Shown: positions 1,592-30,609 of the stretch, piece by piece
Position numbering within the stretch: position 1 is the stretch's first letter
Layout of the letters: every line of letters starts with the position of its first letter
The notes under the pieces: model-generated
What the model was told of the DNA's origin: nothing
Database searches by the model: none
The model's input: only the letters and a program-made list of their open reading frames with translations
Origin: an uncultured Nitrospina sp.
Lineage (GTDB): Bacteria > Nitrospinota > Nitrospinia > Nitrospinales > VA-1
Length of the DNA stretch: 35,024 nt
Assembly (NCBI GenBank): GCA_964510355.1
Contig: CAZEBI010000004.1
Location: 1-35,024, forward strand
Direction of reading: 5' to 3'
Position numbers and translations under genes: made by a program

Positions 1592-4500
1592 TCAAGAGGA
1601 AAGGTCAAAGATCTGTACTCTGCCCCCATCCACATTGGCCACGGCTAACTGGTCGTTGAAAATGGAAAGCCCCCCCACTTTTCCTAACTGCCCAGCCCTT
1701 CTGCCCGGCTTGTGGTAAACGTTTTGGACTTCGAGTTGCTCATTAAGATGCACGATTTGGCTGTTCCAGAAATCGGAGCCAAAAATACCGTGCTTGGGAT
1801 GCCAGGCGAGAAAATAAAGTTCGTCCACTCCCCAATCGGCTTTCTCCGTCGCGTGGATCAGGTTTTCTTGCGCATTAAAATGTTTCAATAAAGATTCTGA
1901 CCGGTCCCCCACCAGGTATTCTCCATTCGGCAGACAATAGACACTGACGGGTTCCTGCAAGTGGGCGCTCAGGGTTCTTTGCAATTTACCCTGCCCATCA
2001 AAAACCCGTATACGGTTGTGTTCGGATTCCGCGACCCAGATATGATCCTGGGCATCGACGGACAGGGAGAAAATGGGGCCAAAATCTCCCCGCCCAAACT
2101 GTAGTAAAAAGTTCCCCTGAGGGTCGAATTTTTTAATCTCCCGGTTCAATTCGTCAATAACATAAATCGAGTTTTTGCTGTCGGTGGATAGATGAACCGG
2201 GTATTGCAGGCAAGTGGGTGCAGACCCCCATCCGCCAAACTGAAACTGGTAATGTCCCTGTTGCGAATAACTGTAAACCCGGTGGTTTTCATAGTCGGCA
2301 ACCAGCAGATCGCCATCCCTGTTGTAGTGGATGCCTTGCGGTGTCAGGATTTGGCCGATTTCCGCCCCGGCTTTTTCCAGAATCCGGATTTCCTGGAAAA
2401 CTGCGCTTTTCCCTGTAGGAGACAGGGGCTCCAGAAATTCGGCCAGCTTGCCCAAAATATTTTTTACTCTGGAGGTCCTCTGGAATTCAAATTCAAGCTG
2501 CTCTAGGTCAATGGTTGCCCGTTCGATTTCATCTTCATTTTTTATCGAGTCTGAAATCTCCGAGATGTCATATTTTGATTCCAGTTCACGGGTCTGGTTC
2601 TTCAAGCTTGAGACCTTGAAAAGTTTTTCTTTGCGGGATTTTAAGATTTCCCGGAGGCGCTGATCGCGCTCTAAAAGATGATCGTTAAAGGTCTGGAAAA
2701 ATTGTTGGGCTTTTGAGTTTTCGTTGTCCATCATCGATAAAAAAGCGCCTGCAAGAACAAGGCGACGAAGGTTGAGCGACTGGTTGATGCCGAGACTCAT
2801 GACCATTCGGCGAATCAGATTGATTTGAAACTGCACAATGGCGATATTATTTTCGATAGTGATGGGGGAGGCTTTGTCTTCCACGTGGGTCTGTTTTAAC
2901 TGGATATCCAGATCTTTGCGGTTCTGCAACATTTCCTCCAATTGCTGGGCGAGTTCCCGGGATTTTTCCTGATAGCTGGCTTGAGTTTCCATCAGCGTTG
3001 ACGCGCAATGGGCAAGTTTCTCCTGGTGCTCCAAAAAACCAGGAAACCGAAAACGGTCCTGCCCCCAAATCAGTTCCTCATTGTTCTTGCGCAAAGGCGC
3101 GCCTTCTGCCCTGAGAATTGCCAGGACTTCTGAAAAATTCAGGTTCTCGGAGTCGTAGGCAATGGGAGAAAAATCTGTGAGTGCGAGATTTTTTGCACTG
3201 ACCGTTTCGCCTGATGAAAGCGTGTCCAACGAGTTTAAAAATTTCTGTTCCAGCTGGGCGTGAGCCGACCCGTTTTCATGAAACCCGATCAGGATTTCCA
3301 GGATATCCGCGCACGCATCGCCAGCCTTCTTTCCGGCTAGATTTTCCAGGCAGACAGGGGTGTTGCGTGCAAGGGCTCTGAGGTTGAACCAGTGGGACTG
3401 CAGCTCAAATTGCAGATGTTGTTGCAGATCCATGAGCCTTCCGTTGCTATGATACGGGGCGAGGAAAGCCGATAACTTATCTTTTTCCCCTTGTGATTCC
3501 CCCAATATACGGACCATGGATTCTTCGGTTTTTTCTTTTTGCCCGAAGTATTCCTTCATGATGCTCAGGGTTGCTTGTATTTGCCGGAGCAGGACATCCT
3601 TCAAAGAATTCAGTTGGGTTTCAGGAAGTTTGCTCTCTGTCAAGTTGCAGAGGCACTGGGAAAATTTCTGCACGGTTTTTTGGTAGCAATAAAACTTGTT
3701 TCGGGTCAGGCGGTAGATTTTTTTGTCTTCCTGGTCGGCGATATGAAGCTCGCGGTTGAACTCACGAATCCCCTCCGGGTCCTGCATAATCTTTTGTTGC
3801 TCGGCAAGTAAAAGTTCAGTATAGGTGCAACCCGATTCTTGCCAGGATAGAAAATATTTTAATGCCTCGTTCCTGGCCGCTTCTAATTGTTCCTGTGCCA
3901 CACGGCAAACCAGGTCGGTAGTTCCCTTGGCTGACAGGCGGCTGAGGTGTAGCGCGGCCTGCATTTTCAAGTCTGGCGGCGTTTTTTCTGAAGAACCTTC
4001 GTTTAAAAGGGTGAGGGTTTTTTCAAGTGCTGCCAGGGCTTTTGAATTGTCATTCTTCTGTTCGAAGACAAGGGCCTGATAAAAAGTATGAGCGGGATTT
4101 GAAAACGAGCTTTCCGCCAGAGTGTTCTGAGAGACCAGCGGAATAAGATATTTAAAAATCCGGGTGTCGAAGGTGCAACCGATATGCAGGCAACCTTTTA
4201 AATCTATGGCGGTCAGGCAGGGCGCGGCAAATCCCTGCTTTGCTCCCTCAATGGCGAACAGATACTGGCCGAAGGGGGAAAAAACCTGGATGCGTTCATT
4301 GTTGAGGTCGGCAACATAAAGCAGGTCATTCGGTGCCACGGTTATACATTGGGGATATTGGAATTGCCCCGCGTTGCTGCCCATTTCCCCAAAAGATAAA
4401 ATCTCCTGCCACTGGGAGTTGAATTTGCGCACCCGATGATTGCCGCTGTCGGTGATGAAAAAATTCCCTTTACTGTCTTTGGCAATGGAAGTGGGCAATT

Positions 4501-5047
4501 CAAATAAAATGGGAGCCAGTAGATGGGCGGGAGTCTGCTGAAGTTGTGCCAGCTGTTCTTCTAAAACGGTCCCCCGGTCCCCCAGGCAACCTAATGATAC
4601 GCCTTGGGAATCGAAGAACTGGATGCGATGGTTGTAACGCTCCACGACAATAATATTTCCCGAAGGCTCAACCAGAATGTCATAGGGTTCATTCAGTTCC
4701 CCTTTGGCATCGCCACAAGTACCGAAGGTAAGAAGCGGGGTTCCTTTTGCATCAAATTTCTGTATCCGGTGATTCCAGCAGTCGGCGACATAGATATTTC
4801 CGTCTGCGTCCACCGCGATGCCCTTGGGATATTGAAATTGACCGGGTTCCTTTCCCTTACTGCCGAAACTATACAGGGGGTTGAATTGCGAGTCATAGAC
4901 CTGAATGCGGTGATTGAAATCATCGGCAAGCAGAAGGTTCCCATCATCGGTAAAACACAGGCCGGAAGGTGGGGAGATCTTTTCCTCCGAGGAGTTCTCG
5001 TTTCGATAGGCGTTTTCAAATTTTATGGGAAACAGGGCGGTTGTCAT
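1592..5047 (-). CDS. Large NHL-repeat protein: N-terminal NHL propeller, ~600-aa helical middle, C-terminal NHL propeller
   Basis: The ORF is open to 5119 (TTG). I prefer ATG 5047 (MTTALFPIKFENAY...), but no clear SD precedes either start. Repeated NHRIQ(V/K/F)(Y/F)D and YP.GIAVD-type blades occur in the first ~300 aa and the last ~300 aa. The middle is rich in Q/E/K/L and looks helical. No signal peptide or TM segment is evident. Confidence 0.75.
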   Translation of the reverse strand: MTTALFPIKFENAYRNENSSEEKISPPSGLCFTDDGNLLLADDFNHRIQVYDSQFNPLYSFGSKGKEPGQFQYPKGIAVDADGNIYVADCWNHRIQKFDAKGTPLLTFGTCGDAKGELNEPYDILVEPSGNIIVVERYNHRIQFFDSQGVSLGCLGDRGTVLEEQLAQLQQTPAHLLAPILFELPTSIAKDSKGNFFITDSGNHRVRKFNSQWQEILSFGEMGSNAGQFQYPQCITVAPNDLLYVADLNNERIQVFSPFGQYLFAIEGAKQGFAAPCLTAIDLKGCLHIGCTFDTRIFKYLIPLVSQNTLAESSFSNPAHTFYQALVFEQKNDNSKALAALEKTLTLLNEGSSEKTPPDLKMQAALHLSRLSAKGTTDLVCRVAQEQLEAARNEALKYFLSWQESGCTYTELLLAEQQKIMQDPEGIREFNRELHIADQEDKKIYRLTRNKFYCYQKTVQKFSQCLCNLTESKLPETQLNSLKDVLLRQIQATLSIMKEYFGQKEKTEESMVRILGESQGEKDKLSAFLAPYHSNGRLMDLQQHLQFELQSHWFNLRALARNTPVCLENLAGKKAGDACADILEILIGFHENGSAHAQLEQKFLNSLDTLSSGETVSAKNLALTDFSPIAYDSENLNFSEVLAILRAEGAPLRKNNEELIWGQDRFRFPGFLEHQEKLAHCASTLMETQASYQEKSRELAQQLEEMLQNRKDLDIQLKQTHVEDKASPITIENNIAIVQFQINLIRRMVMSLGINQSLNLRRLVLAGAFLSMMDNENSKAQQFFQTFNDHLLERDQRLREILKSRKEKLFKVSSLKNQTRELESKYDISEISDSIKNEDEIERATIDLEQLEFEFQRTSRVKNILGKLAEFLEPLSPTGKSAVFQEIRILEKAGAEIGQILTPQGIHYNRDGDLLVADYENHRVYSYSQQGHYQFQFGGWGSAPTCLQYPVHLSTDSKNSIYVIDELNREIKKFDPQGNFLLQFGRGDFGPIFSLSVDAQDHIWVAESEHNRIRVFDGQGKLQRTLSAHLQEPVSVYCLPNGEYLVGDRSESLLKHFNAQENLIHATEKADWGVDELYFLAWHPKHGIFGSDFWNSQIVHLNEQLEVQNVYHKPGRRAGQLGKVGGLSIFNDQLAVANVDGGRVQIFDLSS

Positions 5048-5345
5048 GAAGGAGCGAACCTTTGATTGCGGAGATTTGTGCGGGCAAACCGGCGAGTTGC
5101 CGGTGGCAAGTCGCGGCAAATAAAACCCATTTGGGCGATTTAATCACAACTGTAATGATAAAACAAGGGCACCCCTAAAAACCGCTTTTGGTCATGATCC
5201 CGTTTTCGCTTGCGGCCAGAGGGTTTTATGCTGAATGATAGGATTGCTTCATAAATAATTAGGCGATAAATAATCAAATATTACTAAAAGTTATCGGAAA
5301 AAATACCGCTAAGCTAGTAATGAGCCTTAATTTAAAGAGAGAAAA

Positions 5346-6806
5346 ATGACCCACCCTAAGACTCGGCTTGCGTCATACAAGGCGCAAATCGCAAGGTTGA
5401 TTTTGACGGATGATCTTGACGAAGCAAAAAGGACTCTACAAAAAGCCCCGGAAGATTTTAACCTGATGAGGGGTCTTATGGAAAAGGTTCAAGCTCAAAC
5501 CCGTCCCCTCGATTCATATAGAAATTCAGGGCCAAAATATGCCATCTCATCGGTTTCTTATACCTGCGGCGTGGGGTGCGAAATGTGTTGGGCAGGCTTT
5601 CATGACAAAACAAAGCTCTTTGACAACTATAAAAATCTCTTGCCGGAGGAGTTCGACGATTGGATGCCTTGGGTGGAATATGCTGACATGGTCATGCTGG
5701 CCGGGCTGGGAGAAACTCTGGACTCTCCCTATATCTTTGATCATTTAAACAAGCTCCGCAATAAAACCACTTATCTCACAACAAGTGGATCGACCTTGAC
5801 CTTGAAAAAGGGGAAGCAACTCATTGAATCCGGCCTTTCTTATCTGAGCCTGTCGTTTGATGGGGAGACTGTAGCGGGTCATGGAAGTGGCGACAAGGAG
5901 TACACGCGTCGTTTTTGGGAAAATATCACTCAATTAAATACTTTGAAGGATCAACTTGCGTCTTCCAGTCCAATTTTACGTATGCAAATCGCTTTAAACC
6001 TGGAAAACCTGGACCAGCTTCATTCGTTGATTGAAAAAGCGGTTGCCCATAATATTAAGAGTGTAGAGTTTTTTTTCATGATCCCTTCGAGTGGTGAATT
6101 GTTTGAAAAAAGCATTTTCAGTGATTATGAAAATTCCCGGGAACAAATAAAAAAGGTTTTGAGTTATTGGTCGTCCGAAGGCCTGGATATTTCAATATTC
6201 AACAGGAAGGACATTTCTGAAAAACCGACCTCTTGTCATTATATTGACCTGACTGCAATTTTCAATTTGGATCGTTATTTACCTCAACCCTGTTGCGGCC
6301 CCTTGAGGCTACCTCTGGAAACCCGAGGTTTAACTCCTGAGCGATACTGGAACTCTTTTCCACTGCGTTATTTTCGATACTTGCATGCCAATGATGAAAA
6401 GGAGAGGGTGCCATCTCTTTGTGATTTTTGTTGGGCGCGCAACCCCGATAAATTTGCCAACTCCATACAAGAATCTTTTGCCCCAGAAAAAAATTCTGAA
6501 AACCTGATCCCTGTTTACCAGAAAGCCTCAAACTTGAAAAAGCGGAACGAATTTGACCCGGCAATTCAGCAATTTGAATATGTGATCAAAACGACTCAAG
6601 ATTCCGATCTGCTTGGCAAGGCCCATTTTCACATCGGAGAAATAGAGCTGGGTCAAGGACGCTTTGAAAACGCTTTCTCGCATTTCCAGAAAGCCATCCA
6701 TTTTCAGTTTCGCCACCAATTGGCCTTTTGTTATTTTTATCTATTATGGATTATCCTGGATAAAAATAACCGGGTTCTCTCACCGGAGCTGAGAAAGCTT
6801 ACCTAG
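5346..6806 (+). CDS. Radical SAM protein with SPASM/twitch-like Cys-rich region and C-terminal TPR-like helices (paralogue 1)
   Basis: 486 aa. CX3CX2C motif in VSYTCGVGCEMC, followed by GLGETLD and SFDG blocks typical of the radical SAM core. Downstream cysteines: SCHYID, CCGP, CDFCWA. The tail has TPR-like repeats and a hydrophobic HQLAFCYFYLLWIIL segment. Confidence 0.75.
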   Translation: MTHPKTRLASYKAQIARLILTDDLDEAKRTLQKAPEDFNLMRGLMEKVQAQTRPLDSYRNSGPKYAISSVSYTCGVGCEMCWAGFHDKTKLFDNYKNLLPEEFDDWMPWVEYADMVMLAGLGETLDSPYIFDHLNKLRNKTTYLTTSGSTLTLKKGKQLIESGLSYLSLSFDGETVAGHGSGDKEYTRRFWENITQLNTLKDQLASSSPILRMQIALNLENLDQLHSLIEKAVAHNIKSVEFFFMIPSSGELFEKSIFSDYENSREQIKKVLSYWSSEGLDISIFNRKDISEKPTSCHYIDLTAIFNLDRYLPQPCCGPLRLPLETRGLTPERYWNSFPLRYFRYLHANDEKERVPSLCDFCWARNPDKFANSIQESFAPEKNSENLIPVYQKASNLKKRNEFDPAIQQFEYVIKTTQDSDLLGKAHFHIGEIELGQGRFENAFSHFQKAIHFQFRHQLAFCYFYLLWIILDKNNRVLSPELRKLT

Positions 6807-6841
6807 CGGGGCGCTGAAAAGCTCTGTCGAAGGGGTAAAGA

Positions 6842-6944
6842 ACAACCCCCTTCGTAGAAGGGGGAGCTTCAATGGACCCCTCTTTTACAAAGAGGGGCTG
6901 GGGTGATTTAGAAACTCTCGCGCAATATGTGGGCTAGGGGGGGG
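6842..6944 (-). repeat. Intergenic repeat family A, copy 1 (inverted relative to copy 2 at 30478..30609)
   Basis: The reverse complement of 6842..6944 aligns by eye with 30478..30609. Shared blocks: CCCCCC(C)T(T/A)GCCC(G/A)CATATTGCGCGA, then CTTTGTAAA(A)GAGGGGTCCATT(A/G)AAGCTCCCCCTT...AAGGGGG. Boundaries are approximate. Confidence 0.7.
6846..6897. terminator. Two strong GC hairpins between convergent genes; candidate bidirectional terminator
   Basis: Hairpin 1: CCCCCTTC-gta-GAAGGGGG (6846..6864). Hairpin 2: CCCCTCTTT-tac-AAAGAGGGG (6877..6897). They lie between the stops at 6806 (+) and 7011 (-). Neither has a clear U-tract, so terminator function is inferred only. Confidence 0.35.
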
Positions 6945-7010
6945 TAAACAATTGGGTAAAACCAGATATAAAAGCTGAAGGCTAATGCCAATTAGTTTTT
7001 CAGTAACCTG

Positions 7011-8471
7011 CTAGTGGCAGGCGCCACTCGTGCATTGCGCCTGCTCTAAGGTTATTTCTTCCGGATTTTTTTCAAGTAGCATCATCAATAAATAAAGATA
7101 GGCAAATGCCAGTTGATGCCCAAAATAGTTTTTAATGGTGAGTTTGAACAGGGTGTAAGCCTTGGGATAGTTTTTTTCCTGCATTTCCCTTTCGGCTAAA
7201 TGGAAATAGCATTTTCCCTTCCACACGGGGTTGTCGCTATTTTGTATGATGGTTTTATAATTCTTCTCAGCTTGACCCCACTGGTTATTATTTTTTAGTT
7301 CAGTGGCCTCAAGGTACAGTGGGCGAGCTTTGAAATTGCTGTCATCAGGCTGTAAGTTTTTCGCGAATTTCAAAGGGTTCATAGCCCAACACGTATCACA
7401 GGCAACGGGAAGGGTTTCCGATTTTCCGGTGCCATGCATATACCTGAAGTACCGGAAGGAAAACGAGTTCCAGTAGGTATCCGTTGAATAACCCTGGATT
7501 TTAAGAGGCATGGTGATGGGTCCGCAACAGACCGAGGGCAGGTAGCGATCCAGATTAAAAATGAGCATCTTGTCGATGAAGTGACAGGGCTGTGAATCCT
7601 TGATCTCAACATCATCGCCGATGCGGACCCAAAGGTCTTTTGCGTTGCCCTTTTTAATCTCCTCGTTGATCTTCTTTTGATAATATTTGAAATCGGTGAA
7701 AATCGATTGTTTGTACAGGCCGGGGTTGTGGGGGACCATAACATCCAGTTGCAGTAGATACACCCCTCTCGCCCTGGCCAAGTCAACCATTTCTCCGATC
7801 TGGTCCACGTTTTCCTTGTTGAGGACCATTGTGATCATGACATGCGGAGTCTCGGAGTTGAATTCCTTTTTCACCGCCTGGACCATTTCAATTTTTTTCC
7901 AGATGGTCTGGCTGTATTTTTCGTTTCCGCTGCCATGCCCGGCAGCAGTGAGCCCATCGAATGAGAAATTCAAGGTCTGGAGGCTGGACTGGATGAGGCG
8001 TTTTAGTTTTTCTCGAGTCAAAGGGATTCCGCTGGTGGTGAGGGTGGATTGTTTTAATTCGGATTTTTTCACGAAATCGTAAATATGGGGATTGTCCAGG
8101 GTTTCTCCCTGGCCGACATACACGACAAGGTCGGCAGAATGAATCCAGGGAAGAACCTCACCAAACTGTTCAGGAGACAGCTGTTTGTAGTCTTCAAAGA
8201 GGGATGTTTTATCATGAAAACCCGAGCCGCACATCTTGCACCCGATACCGCATGTATAGGAAACAGCTGTATGTATTTGTTTGGGTGGGGGTGCCGTAAG
8301 ATTTTTCAAGGGTATGGGTTTGCCGGTCACCTGTTTCAGGAGTTCTGAAATACCACTCAATTTTCCATCATCTTGCTGCAACAACTTTTTGGCTTCTGTC
8401 AGATCATCCACCAAAATCGCGCTCATGACTTTATTTTGCAGATTGGGCCAATCTCGTTTTTCAAACTCCAT
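7011..8471 (-). CDS. Radical SAM protein with SPASM/twitch-like Cys-rich region and C-terminal TPR-like helices (paralogue 2)
   Basis: 486 aa. VSYTCGIGCKMC (CX3CX2C), GQGETLD, SFDG, PCHFID, CCGP, CDTCWA, and the HQLAFAYLYLLMMLL tail. Collinear with the 5346..6806 product along its whole length. Its start lies 12 nt downstream of the stop of the 8484..11861 gene. Confidence 0.75.
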   Translation of the reverse strand: MEFEKRDWPNLQNKVMSAILVDDLTEAKKLLQQDDGKLSGISELLKQVTGKPIPLKNLTAPPPKQIHTAVSYTCGIGCKMCGSGFHDKTSLFEDYKQLSPEQFGEVLPWIHSADLVVYVGQGETLDNPHIYDFVKKSELKQSTLTTSGIPLTREKLKRLIQSSLQTLNFSFDGLTAAGHGSGNEKYSQTIWKKIEMVQAVKKEFNSETPHVMITMVLNKENVDQIGEMVDLARARGVYLLQLDVMVPHNPGLYKQSIFTDFKYYQKKINEEIKKGNAKDLWVRIGDDVEIKDSQPCHFIDKMLIFNLDRYLPSVCCGPITMPLKIQGYSTDTYWNSFSFRYFRYMHGTGKSETLPVACDTCWAMNPLKFAKNLQPDDSNFKARPLYLEATELKNNNQWGQAEKNYKTIIQNSDNPVWKGKCYFHLAEREMQEKNYPKAYTLFKLTIKNYFGHQLAFAYLYLLMMLLEKNPEEITLEQAQCTSGACH

Positions 8472-8483
8472 AGTTTGTGCCTT

Positions 8484-11400
8484 TTAGTTTTTGATGATCA
8501 GTTTTTCGACCTCGTGGTCGTAAGCGGTTCGGCTTTGTTGAATCTGGGACCTGCGAAAAAGCATCTGCGGGAGTAATTTCAGGGCATCCCATTTGCTTTT
8601 CAAAAGTACCTGTCCTTGTCCGCGATAGGTGAAATATTTTATGTCGGCAAACTGGTGTTTCCAGATAGAAAAAATGAATTTAAAGTACATCTTGAGGGAA
8701 TAGTTTTTGATGAAAACCCAAAGATCGTTACGTTTGCATAGATAAACATAGCGGTCGCTGTACAGGCCCACTGTGGCGGTGCCGATATGGTAGACCTTGG
8801 CTTTTGGCAGATAAACGGCTCTGAACCCTTGCAATTGCCCCCGCATATTGAGATCGACATCTTCTGCGAAGATGAAAAAATCCTCATCGAAAAGCCCTAC
8901 CTGATTGAAAAATGTGCGTCGATAAATTCCGGCCCCGGCACAGGCTCCGAAAACATAGTCTTCTTTTTCATATTGCCCGACATCTTTTTCTCCCTGACCG
9001 CGGCCGCCGCCTGCGGACCAGCTGTGAAACAGGTCGCCGGTATTGTAAAAAACATCGCGTTGGTCGAGAAACATCATTTTGGTGGTGCCCATGCCGCATT
9101 CGGGATGGCGTTCCATGCCTTCGTAAAGTTCGCGCAACCAGTCCGGGGTCACCTCAATATCATTGTTGAGCAATACGATATATTCTGCGTTCGATGCTTT
9201 GATGCCTTCATTGCAGGCAATGGCGAACCCCATATTTTCAGGGAGTTTCAGTAGCCTTACGTCTGGGTATTGCTCCTCGATCATTTCTCGGGAACCATCG
9301 CTCGAGCCGTTATCGACAACGATGACCTCGTAGTCTGCGAAATCGAGTTTGGCGAGCGAATCCAGACACATGCCGACGAAGCGCATGCCATTCCAGTTGG
9401 GGACCACAACACTGACTTTCAAGGGAGAGCGGGAATTCGGGTTCATAGGTATCTTTTCGGTGTTTTGTGCGCAATTCTGAATAGGGATTTCCATAGTTTC
9501 TGCCGGTTTGCTGCGCAATAAAGCTTTTGCCCCCTGATGCGAGGGGTCTCTCTCAAGGCATTGTTGTAGGAGTTGAGTTTGCTTGTCCGGAGAAACCAGC
9601 AACGCCATCCTGAACCAGGCATTGGCCTGTATATGGGGATAGCTTGATGTCGCCACCGCTGCAAAAACTTTATAAGCTCCGGGTCGGTCGCCGGATTTTT
9701 CCAGGGCGGAAGCGAATGCATAGCGCATGATGTCATTATCCCGGTCTTTTTGCAGATAAAGTTCCAGCGTTTCGTGTTCGGGCCTCAGGTTAGAGTCGAG
9801 CTGGGCAAGACTTTTAACGATCAGAACATGCAGCCATTCGCGGTCTTTAGAGTCTGTGATGTCCCAGGTTTCAGCGTAAAGGTTTCTGAGTCCGTCCCGG
9901 TCCACCAGATTCTGCATGCATTCAACGCTGAATTCCCAGCAGTCATGTCGTTCAGGTTTTTGTCTGCGAACTTTTTCAAATTCTGCCAACGCTTGGGCGT
10001 AGTTTTTTTTGTGCTTTTGCAATAACCCCTGCGAATAAGAGGCTTCCAGATTATAGCCAAAGCGTTTTGTTTCTTCGTTTAGCAAGGAGAGAGCTTCATC
10101 GAGCTTGTTCTGTTCTATTTTTATATTGCAGAGTTTCAAGCGGGTATTGGCCCAATGAGGGGCGAGTTTGAGAACGGTCTCAAATGCTTTTTCGGCTTGC
10201 TCGGTGCGGTCCATGGCGTGATAAATTTCTCCCAGATAATCATGGCCTGCTATATCCAGCTTGTTCAACTTGATGAGTTTTTTGCACTCTTTGAGGGCGA
10301 GAGCGAGTTTTCCTCGGTCGGCATCGGAGCGGTCTAAGCCGGGTGCGTGCCACTCAGCTTGGGTGAGCGCATCCATATGGCGCATTTTTTCCTGCCAGGA
10401 CAAGGCAAGCGGATCGCCTGAAACAGGTTCTACAGATTCCAGGCGGTATACCGGGAACCGGGCCAGCACAACTTTTAATAATTTATAGCGCAAGCCGGTG
10501 ATCTCTTCCAGATGCTGGACATCCAGATCGGTAAAGCTCTTGATCAGGTATTTGGGTTTATGGCGCAAAAGCCCGCCGATGAAGCTGTCGTAAAAACCTT
10601 CGAGATCCGGGGTGTCCCAGGGGCCGATGGTGTGATGCAGAAAATTGTCGGAAGCCGGTGTATCGACCAGATGATAAAGCTGTGAAAAAGTTCCCCAGAC
10701 AAAAATACGTTCACCGCTTTCACCGCGCATTCGCATCAGCCGTTTGAGAATTTTTCCCAGCCGGGGCAGATACAGGTATTGGTCAAATTTTTCGTAATGG
10801 ATCAGGGTCTCAGGTTTTGTTGGGCGCAGATAATAAAAAGCCATGGTTTTTAAATTCCACGCCAGCAAAACCGAGAAACCGGCAAGAACTTTCCATATTG
10901 TAGCTTGCTCCAGCATCAATACGGCATCCATGCCCAAACCACAGCCCAATGAGAGCAAAGCAAATAATGGCAGATAGTGGTACCTGGAAAACGCCCGCTG
11001 GAAAACGATCATGCTAAACAGGACCAGGGAAAAAGCCGGCAACCAGATGTTTTGCTTTTGTATGCAAAAATATGTGAGCGCAATGAGACCCAGCCAGATG
11101 GGCAGGGCTTGCTTGAAGAGTTTGCCGATTTCAAGCAAAACACTGAAATGCATGCTTTTGGTTTGGGTCAGCCTGAGGGTGGTGGCCATACGGGTTTTCA
11201 TTTGTTTGCGCGCGAGGGCATCCCAAAACCCCATCTTCCATTCTACCAGGTTGGAAAGCGCCATCACCCCTGCACCCGCCAGGGCAAACTGGGCCGAGGC
11301 CAGCGCACCGAATTCAATCCAGACCACCGGCGTTAAGACTCCGGCAAAAAGAGCGCTGGTGTATTTGGGCAGGGTAGCCAGACCAAAACAGAATCCTGCA

Positions 11401-11861
11401 AGGATCACCCAACCGGTTTGCAATAAAGCCAGCCCGGAAAAAATAAAAGGAATATAAAATTGTTCGAAGTTGAAAGAACCCGCCGTCAGGTCAGGAGAAG
11501 TGCCATAAAAAGCATAGAGCAAGCCGCCGGTGAAACTGGCCCAGGGGTTGTGGGTGAAACTCCATAAGGCACCATAGATGGCCAGTGAGCCGGCAAGGTG
11601 AAAAGCGGTCTGCAAATGACGGATGCGCTGAACTCCACCCTGAGGGGAACCATAGAGTTTGTCGAACAACAGCATTTTCCACATGGGGATACCGATGATT
11701 TGCAGGTCTTTTTTCCAGCGGAACCCTTGCGACGATGCAAAACGGGCGCGGTAAGTGTAGATGGCAAAATCATCATCCAGAGGAAAATTCCGAAAAGGCC
11801 GACGCAATAAAACGGCGGCGAGGGAAATGATGACTAAAAATGTCGGGGTCAACAGGTCCAT
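8484..11861 (-). CDS. Fusion protein: N-terminal polytopic membrane domain (GT-C-like), central TPR repeats, C-terminal family-2 glycosyltransferase
   Basis: 1125 aa. The first ~400 aa contain many hydrophobic helices, with an acidic FPLDDDFAIYTY loop after TM1. The middle has TPR-like repeats (e.g. GHDYLGEIYHAMDRTEQAEKAFETVLKLAP). The C-terminus reads VSVVVPNWNGMRF...YEVIVVDNGSSDGS...NMGFAIACNEG...LLNNDIEV...FAEDVDL, classic GT2. Confidence 0.8.
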   Translation of the reverse strand: MDLLTPTFLVIISLAAVLLRRPFRNFPLDDDFAIYTYRARFASSQGFRWKKDLQIIGIPMWKMLLFDKLYGSPQGGVQRIRHLQTAFHLAGSLAIYGALWSFTHNPWASFTGGLLYAFYGTSPDLTAGSFNFEQFYIPFIFSGLALLQTGWVILAGFCFGLATLPKYTSALFAGVLTPVVWIEFGALASAQFALAGAGVMALSNLVEWKMGFWDALARKQMKTRMATTLRLTQTKSMHFSVLLEIGKLFKQALPIWLGLIALTYFCIQKQNIWLPAFSLVLFSMIVFQRAFSRYHYLPLFALLSLGCGLGMDAVLMLEQATIWKVLAGFSVLLAWNLKTMAFYYLRPTKPETLIHYEKFDQYLYLPRLGKILKRLMRMRGESGERIFVWGTFSQLYHLVDTPASDNFLHHTIGPWDTPDLEGFYDSFIGGLLRHKPKYLIKSFTDLDVQHLEEITGLRYKLLKVVLARFPVYRLESVEPVSGDPLALSWQEKMRHMDALTQAEWHAPGLDRSDADRGKLALALKECKKLIKLNKLDIAGHDYLGEIYHAMDRTEQAEKAFETVLKLAPHWANTRLKLCNIKIEQNKLDEALSLLNEETKRFGYNLEASYSQGLLQKHKKNYAQALAEFEKVRRQKPERHDCWEFSVECMQNLVDRDGLRNLYAETWDITDSKDREWLHVLIVKSLAQLDSNLRPEHETLELYLQKDRDNDIMRYAFASALEKSGDRPGAYKVFAAVATSSYPHIQANAWFRMALLVSPDKQTQLLQQCLERDPSHQGAKALLRSKPAETMEIPIQNCAQNTEKIPMNPNSRSPLKVSVVVPNWNGMRFVGMCLDSLAKLDFADYEVIVVDNGSSDGSREMIEEQYPDVRLLKLPENMGFAIACNEGIKASNAEYIVLLNNDIEVTPDWLRELYEGMERHPECGMGTTKMMFLDQRDVFYNTGDLFHSWSAGGGRGQGEKDVGQYEKEDYVFGACAGAGIYRRTFFNQVGLFDEDFFIFAEDVDLNMRGQLQGFRAVYLPKAKVYHIGTATVGLYSDRYVYLCKRNDLWVFIKNYSLKMYFKFIFSIWKHQFADIKYFTYRGQGQVLLKSKWDALKLLPQMLFRRSQIQQSRTAYDHEVEKLIIKN

Positions 11862-30477: not shown

Positions 30478-30609
30478 CCCCCCTTGGCCCGCATATTGCG
30501 CGACCCCAGCCCCTTGTGATGTTCTCTTCATTAGCCCTCATGCCCCGAGAAGCGGGTACTTTGTAAAGAGGGGTCCATTAAAGCTCCCCCTTGATAAGGG
30601 GGGGATTGT
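30478..30609 (+). repeat. Intergenic repeat family A, copy 2 (carries an internal ~45-bp extra segment relative to copy 1)
   Basis: See copy 1. It contains the hairpin TCCCCCTT-gat-AAGGGGGA. The extra segment includes CATTAGCCCTCATGCCCCGAGA (30529..30550), which also occurs inverted inside family B copy 2 (31793..31814). Confidence 0.7.

Follow-up and report, generated by a model that had tools for sequence, protein, structure and literature searches.

What do two neighbouring radical S-adenosylmethionine (SAM) enzymes act on when their genes adjoin a run of glycosyltransferase genes? The question arises at positions 5,346 to 8,471 of contig CAZEBI010000004.1, assembled from an uncultured Nitrospina sp.; positions are those of the window, the whole 35,024-nucleotide (nt) stretch that was analysed, which is rich in GT2, GT4 and GT-C genes from 8.5 to 24.6 kb. 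Among the nitrite oxidisers of the ocean the Nitrospinota dominate; they are difficult to grow in culture, and their envelope biology is largely obscure. A preliminary description made from the sequence reported two convergent, collinear radical SAM genes of 486 amino acids (aa) each, here called rSAM-A and rSAM-B. The coordinates, the 204-bp spacer and the 12-nt gap between rSAM-B and a gene for a fusion of membrane, tetratricopeptide repeat (TPR) and GT2 glycosyltransferase domains were all as claimed. We hold it to be an even call that the two proteins are glycoconjugate-tailoring enzymes with a twitch-type auxiliary domain, docked by TPR tails. The family, its motifs, its predicted fold class, its restriction to Nitrospinota, the synteny, the variable cassette and the glycan setting of the outgroup are shown; that a sugar is the substrate, what reaction takes place and that the tail serves for docking are the parts that we infer.

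The two genes are as follows (AlphaFold2 (AF2) model confidence is the predicted local distance difference test, pLDDT).
5346..6806, plus strand: rSAM-A (P0001, 486 aa), a long-branch family member whose closest homologues are orphan genes in other Nitrospinota; AF2 pLDDT 86.5.
7011..8471, minus strand: rSAM-B (P0002, 486 aa), which follows the GT2 fusion after 12 nt and is the member in synteny with relatives; AF2 pLDDT 85.2.

BLASTP aligned the two proteins collinearly at 39% identity over 473 aa (E 1e-124), with 5 gap positions. Residues 63-185, with the SAM-cluster, GGE and ribose core, were 54.5% identical, residues 291-365 (the auxiliary cysteine region) 52%, and the remainder (N-terminal helices, rest of the barrel and tail) 24-34%. 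The earlier count by eye, of more than half identical in the core, agrees with these measurements. Judged by their sequences, rSAM-A and rSAM-B are indeed paralogues, and their radical SAM family is uncharacterised.

This family is small and, on sequence searches, was seen only in Nitrospinota among the named members and loci found. Word-indexed searches seeded with each paralogue returned about 30 clusters each, and all named matches were to Nitrospina, Nitrospinaceae, Nitrospinae or Nitromaritima. An exhaustive profile search of 1.84 billion representatives gave 34 matches below 1e-30, including about 20 full-length family members (50%-identity clusters) at 318 bits or more; the best non-family protein, after family fragments, scored 138 bits. 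A motif-seeded scan of GTDB species genomes found 16 loci, every one of them in Nitrospinota. In the tree the family was monophyletic on a long stem, with at least six deep clades. A complete Nitrospinales chromosome (locus L025, 9953-10378) has an rSAM-A-like match over residues 229-367 only, at 60% identity, which may be a gene remnant.

Conserved residues were read from two family alignments, A1 with 21 sequences and A2 with 28, and are numbered as in rSAM-B. The cysteines of the CX3CX2C motif (C74, C78 and C81), recognised in the preliminary description as the radical SAM cluster motif, were invariant in both, as were G120-x-G122-E123-T124-L125, S170, G173 and an unusual loop, G178-H179-G180. 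D172 and G182 were invariant in A1 and at least 90% conserved in A2. Beyond the cluster motif exactly four cysteines were invariant (C296, C315, C358 and C361), spaced C-X18-C-X42-C-X2-C; the second cysteine of the string CCGP is not invariant, being E, N or D in one clade. Two further blocks had been proposed as invariant from the window pair. That on the WNS helix was kept (W334, F337, R340, Y341 and R343 invariant; S336 invariant in A1 and at least 90% conserved in A2), but IFNLDRYLP is common to the two window proteins only. The Pfam model PF04055 matched rSAM-B at 47.6 bits (cut-off 29.5) and rSAM-A at 24.8 bits, slightly under the cut-off. With their CX3CX2C, GGE and ribose motifs and a partial barrel, both proteins belong to the radical SAM superfamily. 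The motifs for the SAM-binding [4Fe-4S] cluster lie as follows.
5565..5588, plus strand: rSAM-A CX3CX2C motif (C74, C78, C81), invariant in A2.
8229..8252, minus strand: rSAM-B CX3CX2C motif (C74, C78, C81), invariant in A1; PF04055 match as above.

The rSAM-B clade alone has a conserved C-terminal cysteine in the context LE..xC, 3-9 residues from the end (residues 470-486, window 7011-7062; A1). This cysteine could be an extra cluster ligand or a self-modification site.

The AF2 models (predicted template modelling score, pTM, 0.85 for rSAM-B and 0.86 for rSAM-A) both consist, in order, of three N-terminal helices, a partial barrel, a beta-hairpin and helix region and five stacked C-terminal helices. 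The N-terminal helical segment noted earlier is recovered here as three helices, with no strands. A search of the PDB with the family sequence profile matched no radical SAM structure and gave only weak TPR matches, so a comparison of folds was needed. Foldseek placed both models in the SPASM/twitch branch, at 11-17% identity and target TM-scores of 0.33-0.68. Its matches included peptide and protein modifiers (SkfB, the anaerobic sulfatase-maturing enzyme (anSME), SuiB, PqqE, CteB, ChlB and EpeE), enzymes of sugars, nucleotides or nucleosides (BlsE, DesII, MoaA, AbmM and viperin) and the lipid modifier GDGT-MAS. Since the matches span peptide, sugar, nucleotide and lipid enzymes, the fold alone cannot set the substrate class. 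Both genes probably encode catalytically competent enzymes, because the CX3CX2C, GGE and ribose motifs and the four auxiliary cysteines are invariant and the models match SPASM/twitch structures (SkfB, BlsE, anSME, SuiB, DesII and MoaA).

The second cysteine set had been read as an auxiliary cluster of SPASM or twitch type. A twitch is a truncated SPASM fold of a beta-hairpin and helix alpha2' that holds a single auxiliary cluster. Its topology has been described for BtrN and SkfB, and the SPASM domain has the seven-cysteine pattern CX9-15GX4C-gap-CX2CX5CX3C-gap-C and binds two auxiliary clusters (PMC6231123). In both AF2 models one cysteine stands before the beta-hairpin and one after it, and a helix (residues 330-347) is followed by CX2C. 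This suggests a twitch-like C-terminal domain with one predicted four-cysteine auxiliary site, placed around the hairpin and after the helix and laid out as in a twitch; such a site would bind one Fe-S cluster wholly through cysteines. The structure prediction upholds an auxiliary domain in both paralogues, but not one of the SPASM type (PF13186 / TIGR04085): there are only four invariant C-terminal cysteines, no CX2CX5CX3C and no PF13186 match. In the NCBIfam scan of the pair, NF033640 scored only 16 bits. The auxiliary regions are at these positions.
6234..6431, plus strand: rSAM-A twitch-like auxiliary-cluster region (C297, C316, C359, C362 in its own numbering), invariant in A2; predicted hairpin and helix topology.
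7389..7586, minus strand: rSAM-B twitch-like auxiliary-cluster region (C296, C315, C358, C361), invariant in A1; predicted topology as in rSAM-A.

The five C-terminal helices, predicted at pLDDT above 90, are TPR-like and amount to about 2.5 repeats; what had been called a conserved hydrophobic tail is the last of them, again predicted with high confidence. The family profile matched CTR9 and consensus TPR proteins in the PDB (E 0.003-0.008), and rSAM-A only gave single-repeat Pfam TPR matches (19-22 bits, under the cut-off).
6507..6755, plus strand: rSAM-A C-terminal TPR-like helices (residues 388-470), with the sub-cut-off matches to TPR_2, TPR_1 and TPR_8 and AF2 helices.
7074..7328, minus strand: rSAM-B C-terminal TPR-like helices (residues 382-466), with the family profile matches, AF2 helices and a similar tail on a GT2-TPR protein of another locus.

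The preliminary description had taken the TPR tails to link the radical SAM enzymes with the neighbouring glycosyltransferase. One form of that link stands: the tail resembles the C-terminal tail of a GT2-TPR protein encoded in the related locus L003 (E 5e-5, 28% identity over 79 aa). It does not resemble the TPR array of the neighbouring GT2 fusion (E 0.2-0.4), and a TPR module common to the radical SAM enzymes and the fusion is not supported. The weak alignment with the L003 protein suggests that one docking tail type may be carried by different catalytic domains.

To which known subfamily do these enzymes belong? Scans of the pair against Pfam, NCBIfam and PADLOC gave nothing over cut-off save the generic PF04055, and the earlier verdict of unclear function is unchanged by this classification with hidden Markov models. 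The best NCBIfam models were TIGR04317 (84.4 and 66.5 bits) and TIGR04311 (59 and 35.6 bits), both putative metalloenzyme maturases, and they were rejected as assignments since their cut-offs are 380 or 400 bits. Membership of a pVip-type defence system was not supported either; the PADLOC pVip model reached 21.6 bits for rSAM-A only, covered the generic barrel and did not match rSAM-B. That the pair matures a cofactor or metalloenzyme, as proposed for TIGR04317 and TIGR04311, or in a variant acts as an anSME-like sulfatase maturase, is in our view very unlikely. These two models are the best curated matches (TIGR04317 at 84 and 66 bits), anSME is among the best fold matches, and in locus L009, the only one with adjacent sulfatases, the radical SAM gene comes after two of these and an AlkP-type phosphodiesterase. 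However, the scores fall far under the cut-offs, and no tungsten or molybdenum oxidoreductase or sulfatase occurs in the window or in most loci. As for the variant, anSME needs two auxiliary clusters (seven or eight cysteines), only four cysteines are conserved here, and no anSME model was among the NCBIfam matches.

A maturase of a ribosomally synthesised and post-translationally modified peptide (RiPP), acting on an unrecognised precursor, is barely credible at this locus. SPASM/twitch enzymes are the mainstay of radical SAM-dependent RiPP pathways, and L003 has three tandem paralogues of 195 aa in the region next to its radical SAM genes. Against this, neither a RiPP recognition element (RRE) nor a PqqD-like domain was matched, and the N-terminus consists of three helices only. 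The locus has no protease or exporter, and neither the window nor most loci have the 195-aa genes. The preliminary description had found no plausible precursor gene and no support for a classical RiPP locus, and we can extend this to the intergenic regions of 11 loci, where no small open reading frame (ORF) was conserved as a peptide. A recurring string, ..MIKC, is a conserved promoter-like DNA element, TTGTxA-N17-TTAAAT, read in varying frames, and a hidden precursor peptide was rejected on both grounds. The lack of an RRE, a PqqD-like match and a conserved small ORF counts against a peptide substrate.

We then asked what surrounds the family elsewhere. The genes flanking the pair in the window are these.
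8484..11861, minus strand: GT-C-like membrane domain, TPR array and GT2 fusion (P0003), conserved as the upstream flank and probably in one operon with rSAM-B.
1592..5119, minus strand: giant protein with an NHL domain, a helical spacer and a second NHL domain (P0004), the conserved downstream flank of the radical SAM slot; among named matches, found only in Nitrospinota.

The linkage of the pair to both flanking genes, put forward in the preliminary description, is kept across Nitrospinota loci. In distinct lineages the order runs from RF2 (minus strand) through the membrane-TPR-GT2 protein (fused or split), a variable cassette and one to three family radical SAM genes to the giant NHL protein, which is followed by a spermine-synthase-like gene (minus strand) and then phosphoenolpyruvate carboxykinase. 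Of 15 distinct loci, 11 have a family member directly adjoining the NHL giant; L009, L021 and L023, each atypical in layout or orientation, are among them. The cassette extras comprise O-methyltransferases like TylF, Methyltransf_24 and CmcI, a B12-radical SAM enzyme, a further radical SAM-SPASM enzyme, and GT2, GT2-TPR, sulfotransferase, sulfatase and phosphodiesterase genes. In L021 the NHL gene is on the minus strand and two radical SAM genes on the plus strand, followed by a CmcI-like methyltransferase, a B12-radical SAM enzyme and a GT2. The deep-branching L023 has two radical SAM genes, a sulfotransferase, a PMT_2 and TPR protein and the NHL gene. The L023 membrane protein, which carries a Pfam PMT_2 match, aligns to the first 635 residues of P0003 and so supports the GT-C-like nature of the P0003 membrane domain. 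In L009 (1678-17464) the radical SAM and NHL genes lie between two sulfatases with an AlkP-type phosphodiesterase and two 1000-aa YfhO-like proteins; the GT2 fusion is missing there, and YfhO and DegT genes adjoin the locus.

Two side observations concern the cassette. The three tandem 195-aa paralogues of L003 (2680-4651) each start with a hydrophobic anchor, have a beta-rich domain that closes with NNTWFAIEV, and had no Pfam match. L022 (8770-9960), and L018 in the same region, has a 398-codon frame with CNLLCKHC between the GT2 fusion and the family radical SAM gene; this is a further radical SAM enzyme, at about 22% identity to the family.

The content of the slot changes between close relatives, whereas the flanks are 74-79% (GT2 fusion) and 64-69% (NHL) identical. 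In the closest relative (rSAM-B 83% identical) nothing but rSAM-B separates the fusion from the NHL gene. Other relatives have rSAM-B followed, with a few-base overlap, by a gene of about 500 aa from a different clade, and some have three members. L020 and L022 match the window at 76-79% identity in the fusion and 68-69% in NHL, yet their single slot enzyme is only 34-41% identical to either window protein, indicating that the slot was refilled by another paralogue. Among the closest homologues of rSAM-A, which are 70-81% identical to it, is a gene that stands as an orphan, with rpsB and pfk on either side, in another lineage of Nitrospinota, and by sequence rSAM-A is not the orthologue of the usual second slot gene. 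It also lies on the strand opposite to that of every syntenic relative; no inverted repeats were found flanking it, and an inversion by such repeats was rejected. The convergent pair is present in the window sequence, but it is not the conserved unit, as most relatives have one to three co-directional members. The conserved thing is the slot.

The regions on either side of rSAM-A bear on how the genes are transcribed and on whether they truly adjoin.
5138..5166, minus strand: sigma-70-like promoter element TTGTxA-N17-TTAAAT upstream of the NHL gene, conserved across relatives.
6807..7010, no strand: tail-to-tail spacer of 204 bp, whose core (6848-6919) is a high-copy repeat resembling repetitive extragenic palindromes, with two GC hairpins; fold z-score -3.8.

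The promoter-like element stands upstream of the NHL gene in the window and in L002, L008, L013, L020 and L022. The NHL gene has its own conserved element and is apparently transcribed alone, not with the radical SAM genes; on sequence, these are more likely co-transcribed with the GT2 fusion. rSAM-A and the NHL gene do share the 226-bp divergent region that had been proposed as a common promoter, but the NHL gene has its own element and rSAM-B is tied more closely to the fusion. No known RNA family was found in 4900-8700, and none of the RNA runs searched for transcripts contains the region. For the NHL ORF itself, the annotated TTG start is possibly too far upstream: an ATG at 5047 gives MTTALFPIKF, but against relatives tblastn already aligns the long form from its residues 8-17 onwards.

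The repeat element noted earlier in the spacer is a hairpin repeat of about 70 nt with a k-mer depth of about 4400 in the probable source run, against 14-19 in its flanks; a partial copy lies at 30565-30592, and it is probably a bidirectional terminator. It also raises the prospect that two strain variants of the locus were joined across it during assembly, which we regard as unlikely. Logan unitigs of the same run break inside the repeat, at 6872/6900, depth differs between its left (13.8) and right (19.4) sides, and the closest relative has no rSAM-A at this site. However, one unitig carries NHL and rSAM-A side by side in divergent orientation, and both flanks come from the same syntenic locus. 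The A|B join is probably real, since the repeat is short enough for 150-nt reads to span, synteny is right on both sides and L021 independently has radical SAM genes divergent from NHL, a comparable layout.

What substrate do the nearest relatives suggest? The closest proteins outside the family in the exhaustive search (P0077, P0083, P0090 and P0099; 107-138 bits) have an SxDG..GHxGGG loop, and three of the four have the WNS motif. P0077, P0083 and P0090 have a C...CC...CxxC layout in common with the family, and P0077 is a radical SAM-SPASM enzyme fused to a GT4 glycosyltransferase. All three outgroup contexts examined were polysaccharide clusters. The first has Wzt with Wzt_C, a sulfatase-like protein and GT2, Methyltransf_24 and GT4 genes; the second a methyltransferase, an APH-type kinase, a radical SAM-SPASM enzyme, a GT2, a B12-radical SAM enzyme and an Acyl_transf_3 protein; the third Wzt with Wzt_C, a radical SAM enzyme, a methyltransferase and a GT2. 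The Nitrospinota cassette extras are of the same glycan-decoration type as these genes. By analogy with the nearest outgroup, a glycan is a likelier substrate than a protein. The shared macromolecular substrate first proposed, either a protein or a glycoconjugate, is in this way tilted to the glycan side. The outgroup clade (P0077, P0083 and P0090) differs from the family, from which a long stem of about 2 substitutions per site separates it, in lacking the N-terminal helices and the TPR tail, and its clusters lack the NHL giant and the GT-C-like/TPR/GT2 fusion.

Together with the position of rSAM-B 12 nt behind the GT2 fusion and the order of fusion, radical SAM gene(s) and NHL in most Nitrospinota loci, including L023, the cassette extras and the outgroup support a role in glycan tailoring. 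In such a role, each enzyme would reductively cleave SAM in the cytoplasm and abstract a hydrogen from a sugar carbon. That sugar might be nucleotide-linked, polyprenyl-linked or part of a glycan still being built on the cytoplasmic face. The radical would be resolved with the auxiliary cluster as electron acceptor, as proposed for BtrN and anSME (PMC6231123), giving oxidation, epimerisation, decarboxylation or a similar outcome. The glycoconjugate would be assembled by the GT-C-like/TPR/GT2 fusion and the surrounding glycosyltransferases, and the TPR tail would dock each enzyme on a common protein partner, which may be the machinery for glycosylation or the double-NHL scaffold. Between the GT2 fusion and NHL, the slot would act as a variable cassette in which swapped or added paralogues and methyl-, sulfo- and glycosyl-transferases diversify the product.

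Several observations weigh against glycan tailoring. No member or near relative has a known substrate or product, and Foldseek does not separate sugar- from peptide-acting enzymes, its top matches including SkfB, SuiB and anSME. Peptides or proteins are the substrates of most characterised SPASM/twitch enzymes, and the usual ligand of a TPR domain is a protein. The radical SAM gene stays beside the NHL giant where the GT2 fusion is absent (L009), which fits a protein target as well. The closest homologues of rSAM-A sit away from glycosylation genes, the best curated-model matches are to the putative metalloenzyme maturases TIGR04317 and TIGR04311, far under cut-off, and the tail similarity to the cassette GT2-TPR protein is weak (28% over 79 aa).

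These points lead to a rival that we judge somewhat unlikely, in which the enzymes are protein-modifying maturases. A TPR tail in place of an RRE would direct a cross-link, an anSME-like oxidation or an epimerisation onto a folded protein, most plausibly the NHL giant. The adjacency to NHL in 11 of 15 loci fits this, as do the confinement of the named members of both families, and of all loci, to Nitrospinota, the nature of TPR domains as protein-binding modules and the presence of anSME, SkfB and SuiB among the top fold matches. On the other hand, NHL has its own promoter-like element and rSAM-B is coupled to the GT2 fusion instead, the slot enzyme does not co-evolve with NHL (34-41% against 64-69% identity), rSAM-A-type orphans have no NHL gene nearby, and the nearest outgroup sits in polysaccharide clusters. 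A broader proposal, which we regard as speculative and fairly doubtful, is that the TPR tail is a new way of aiming radical SAM enzymes that replaces the RRE. The paralogues would dock on a Nitrospinota-specific assembly of the GT-C/TPR/GT2 fusion and the double-propeller NHL protein and act on a folded protein or a protein-bound glycan, so that swaps of paralogue re-programme the modification. If so, TPR-aimed radical SAM enzymes would provide modular, cassette-encoded diversification of a surface or envelope structure in the main marine nitrite oxidisers.

The locus defines a phylum-restricted radical SAM family in which a twitch-like enzyme is fused to a TPR-like tail. Slot content turns over between close relatives in the way that is typical where phages or grazers exert pressure on surface structures. 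If sugar tailoring is true, the family adds to a large, essentially unstudied pool of radical SAM enzymes in glycan clusters, with oxygen-independent sugar chemistry possible; if NHL modification is true, the family would show that protein-modifying radical SAM enzymes can recognise their substrates in a new way. In practical terms the locus offers a few soluble enzymes of 486 aa whose partner genes are clear and which are testable in E. coli. In the searchable literature we found no description of a twitch radical SAM enzyme with a TPR tail and N-terminal helices, of Nitrospina radical SAM enzymes of this kind, of radical SAM-SPASM enzymes in O-antigen clusters, or of a Nitrospinota-restricted family of this type and its paralogue-swapping slot.

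How does the pair compare with known systems? BtrN (the butirosin 2-deoxy-scyllo-inosamine (DOIA) dehydrogenase), BlsE (PDB 7VOB), DesII (8HZV) and AbmM (8WM2) have the radical SAM partial barrel, the C-terminal beta-hairpin and helix domain and the single cysteine-ligated auxiliary cluster site that are predicted for the pair, and their genes, like those of the pair, are set among sugar-handling genes. The predicted cysteine layout is the one described for BtrN, with one cysteine before the hairpin, one after it and CX2C after the helix (PMC6231123). BlsE, DesII and AbmM were among the Foldseek matches, and BtrN was not in the top 50. These four enzymes differ from the pair in sequence (11-17% identity) and in having neither the three-helix N-terminal segment nor a TPR tail, and the window locus has no antibiotic pathway. 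SkfB (6EFN), SuiB (5V1T), anSME (4K36) and PqqE (6C8V) were the best Foldseek matches (E 4e-9 to 4e-7, target TM-score 0.48-0.58) and belong to the same superfamily branch. In contrast to them, the pair has no RRE, no precursor gene, four auxiliary cysteines rather than a seven-cysteine SPASM and no PF13186 match. TIGR04317 (tungsten cofactor oxidoreductase radical SAM maturase) and TIGR04311 (rSAM_Geo_metal) were the top curated models for both the pair and the nearest outgroup, but the best matches reached only 66-84 bits and covered mostly the barrel; to our knowledge, these families are themselves experimentally uncharacterised. Protein glycosyltransferases that bear TPRs are known from Listeria (GmaR, GT2 and TPR), Caulobacter (FlmG) and eukaryotes (TMTC, GT-C and TPR), and in them the TPRs recruit the partner protein. 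This layout of catalytic domain and TPR is found again in the neighbouring fusion and in the cassette GT2-TPR protein, whereas in the family described here the tail is carried by a radical SAM enzyme instead.

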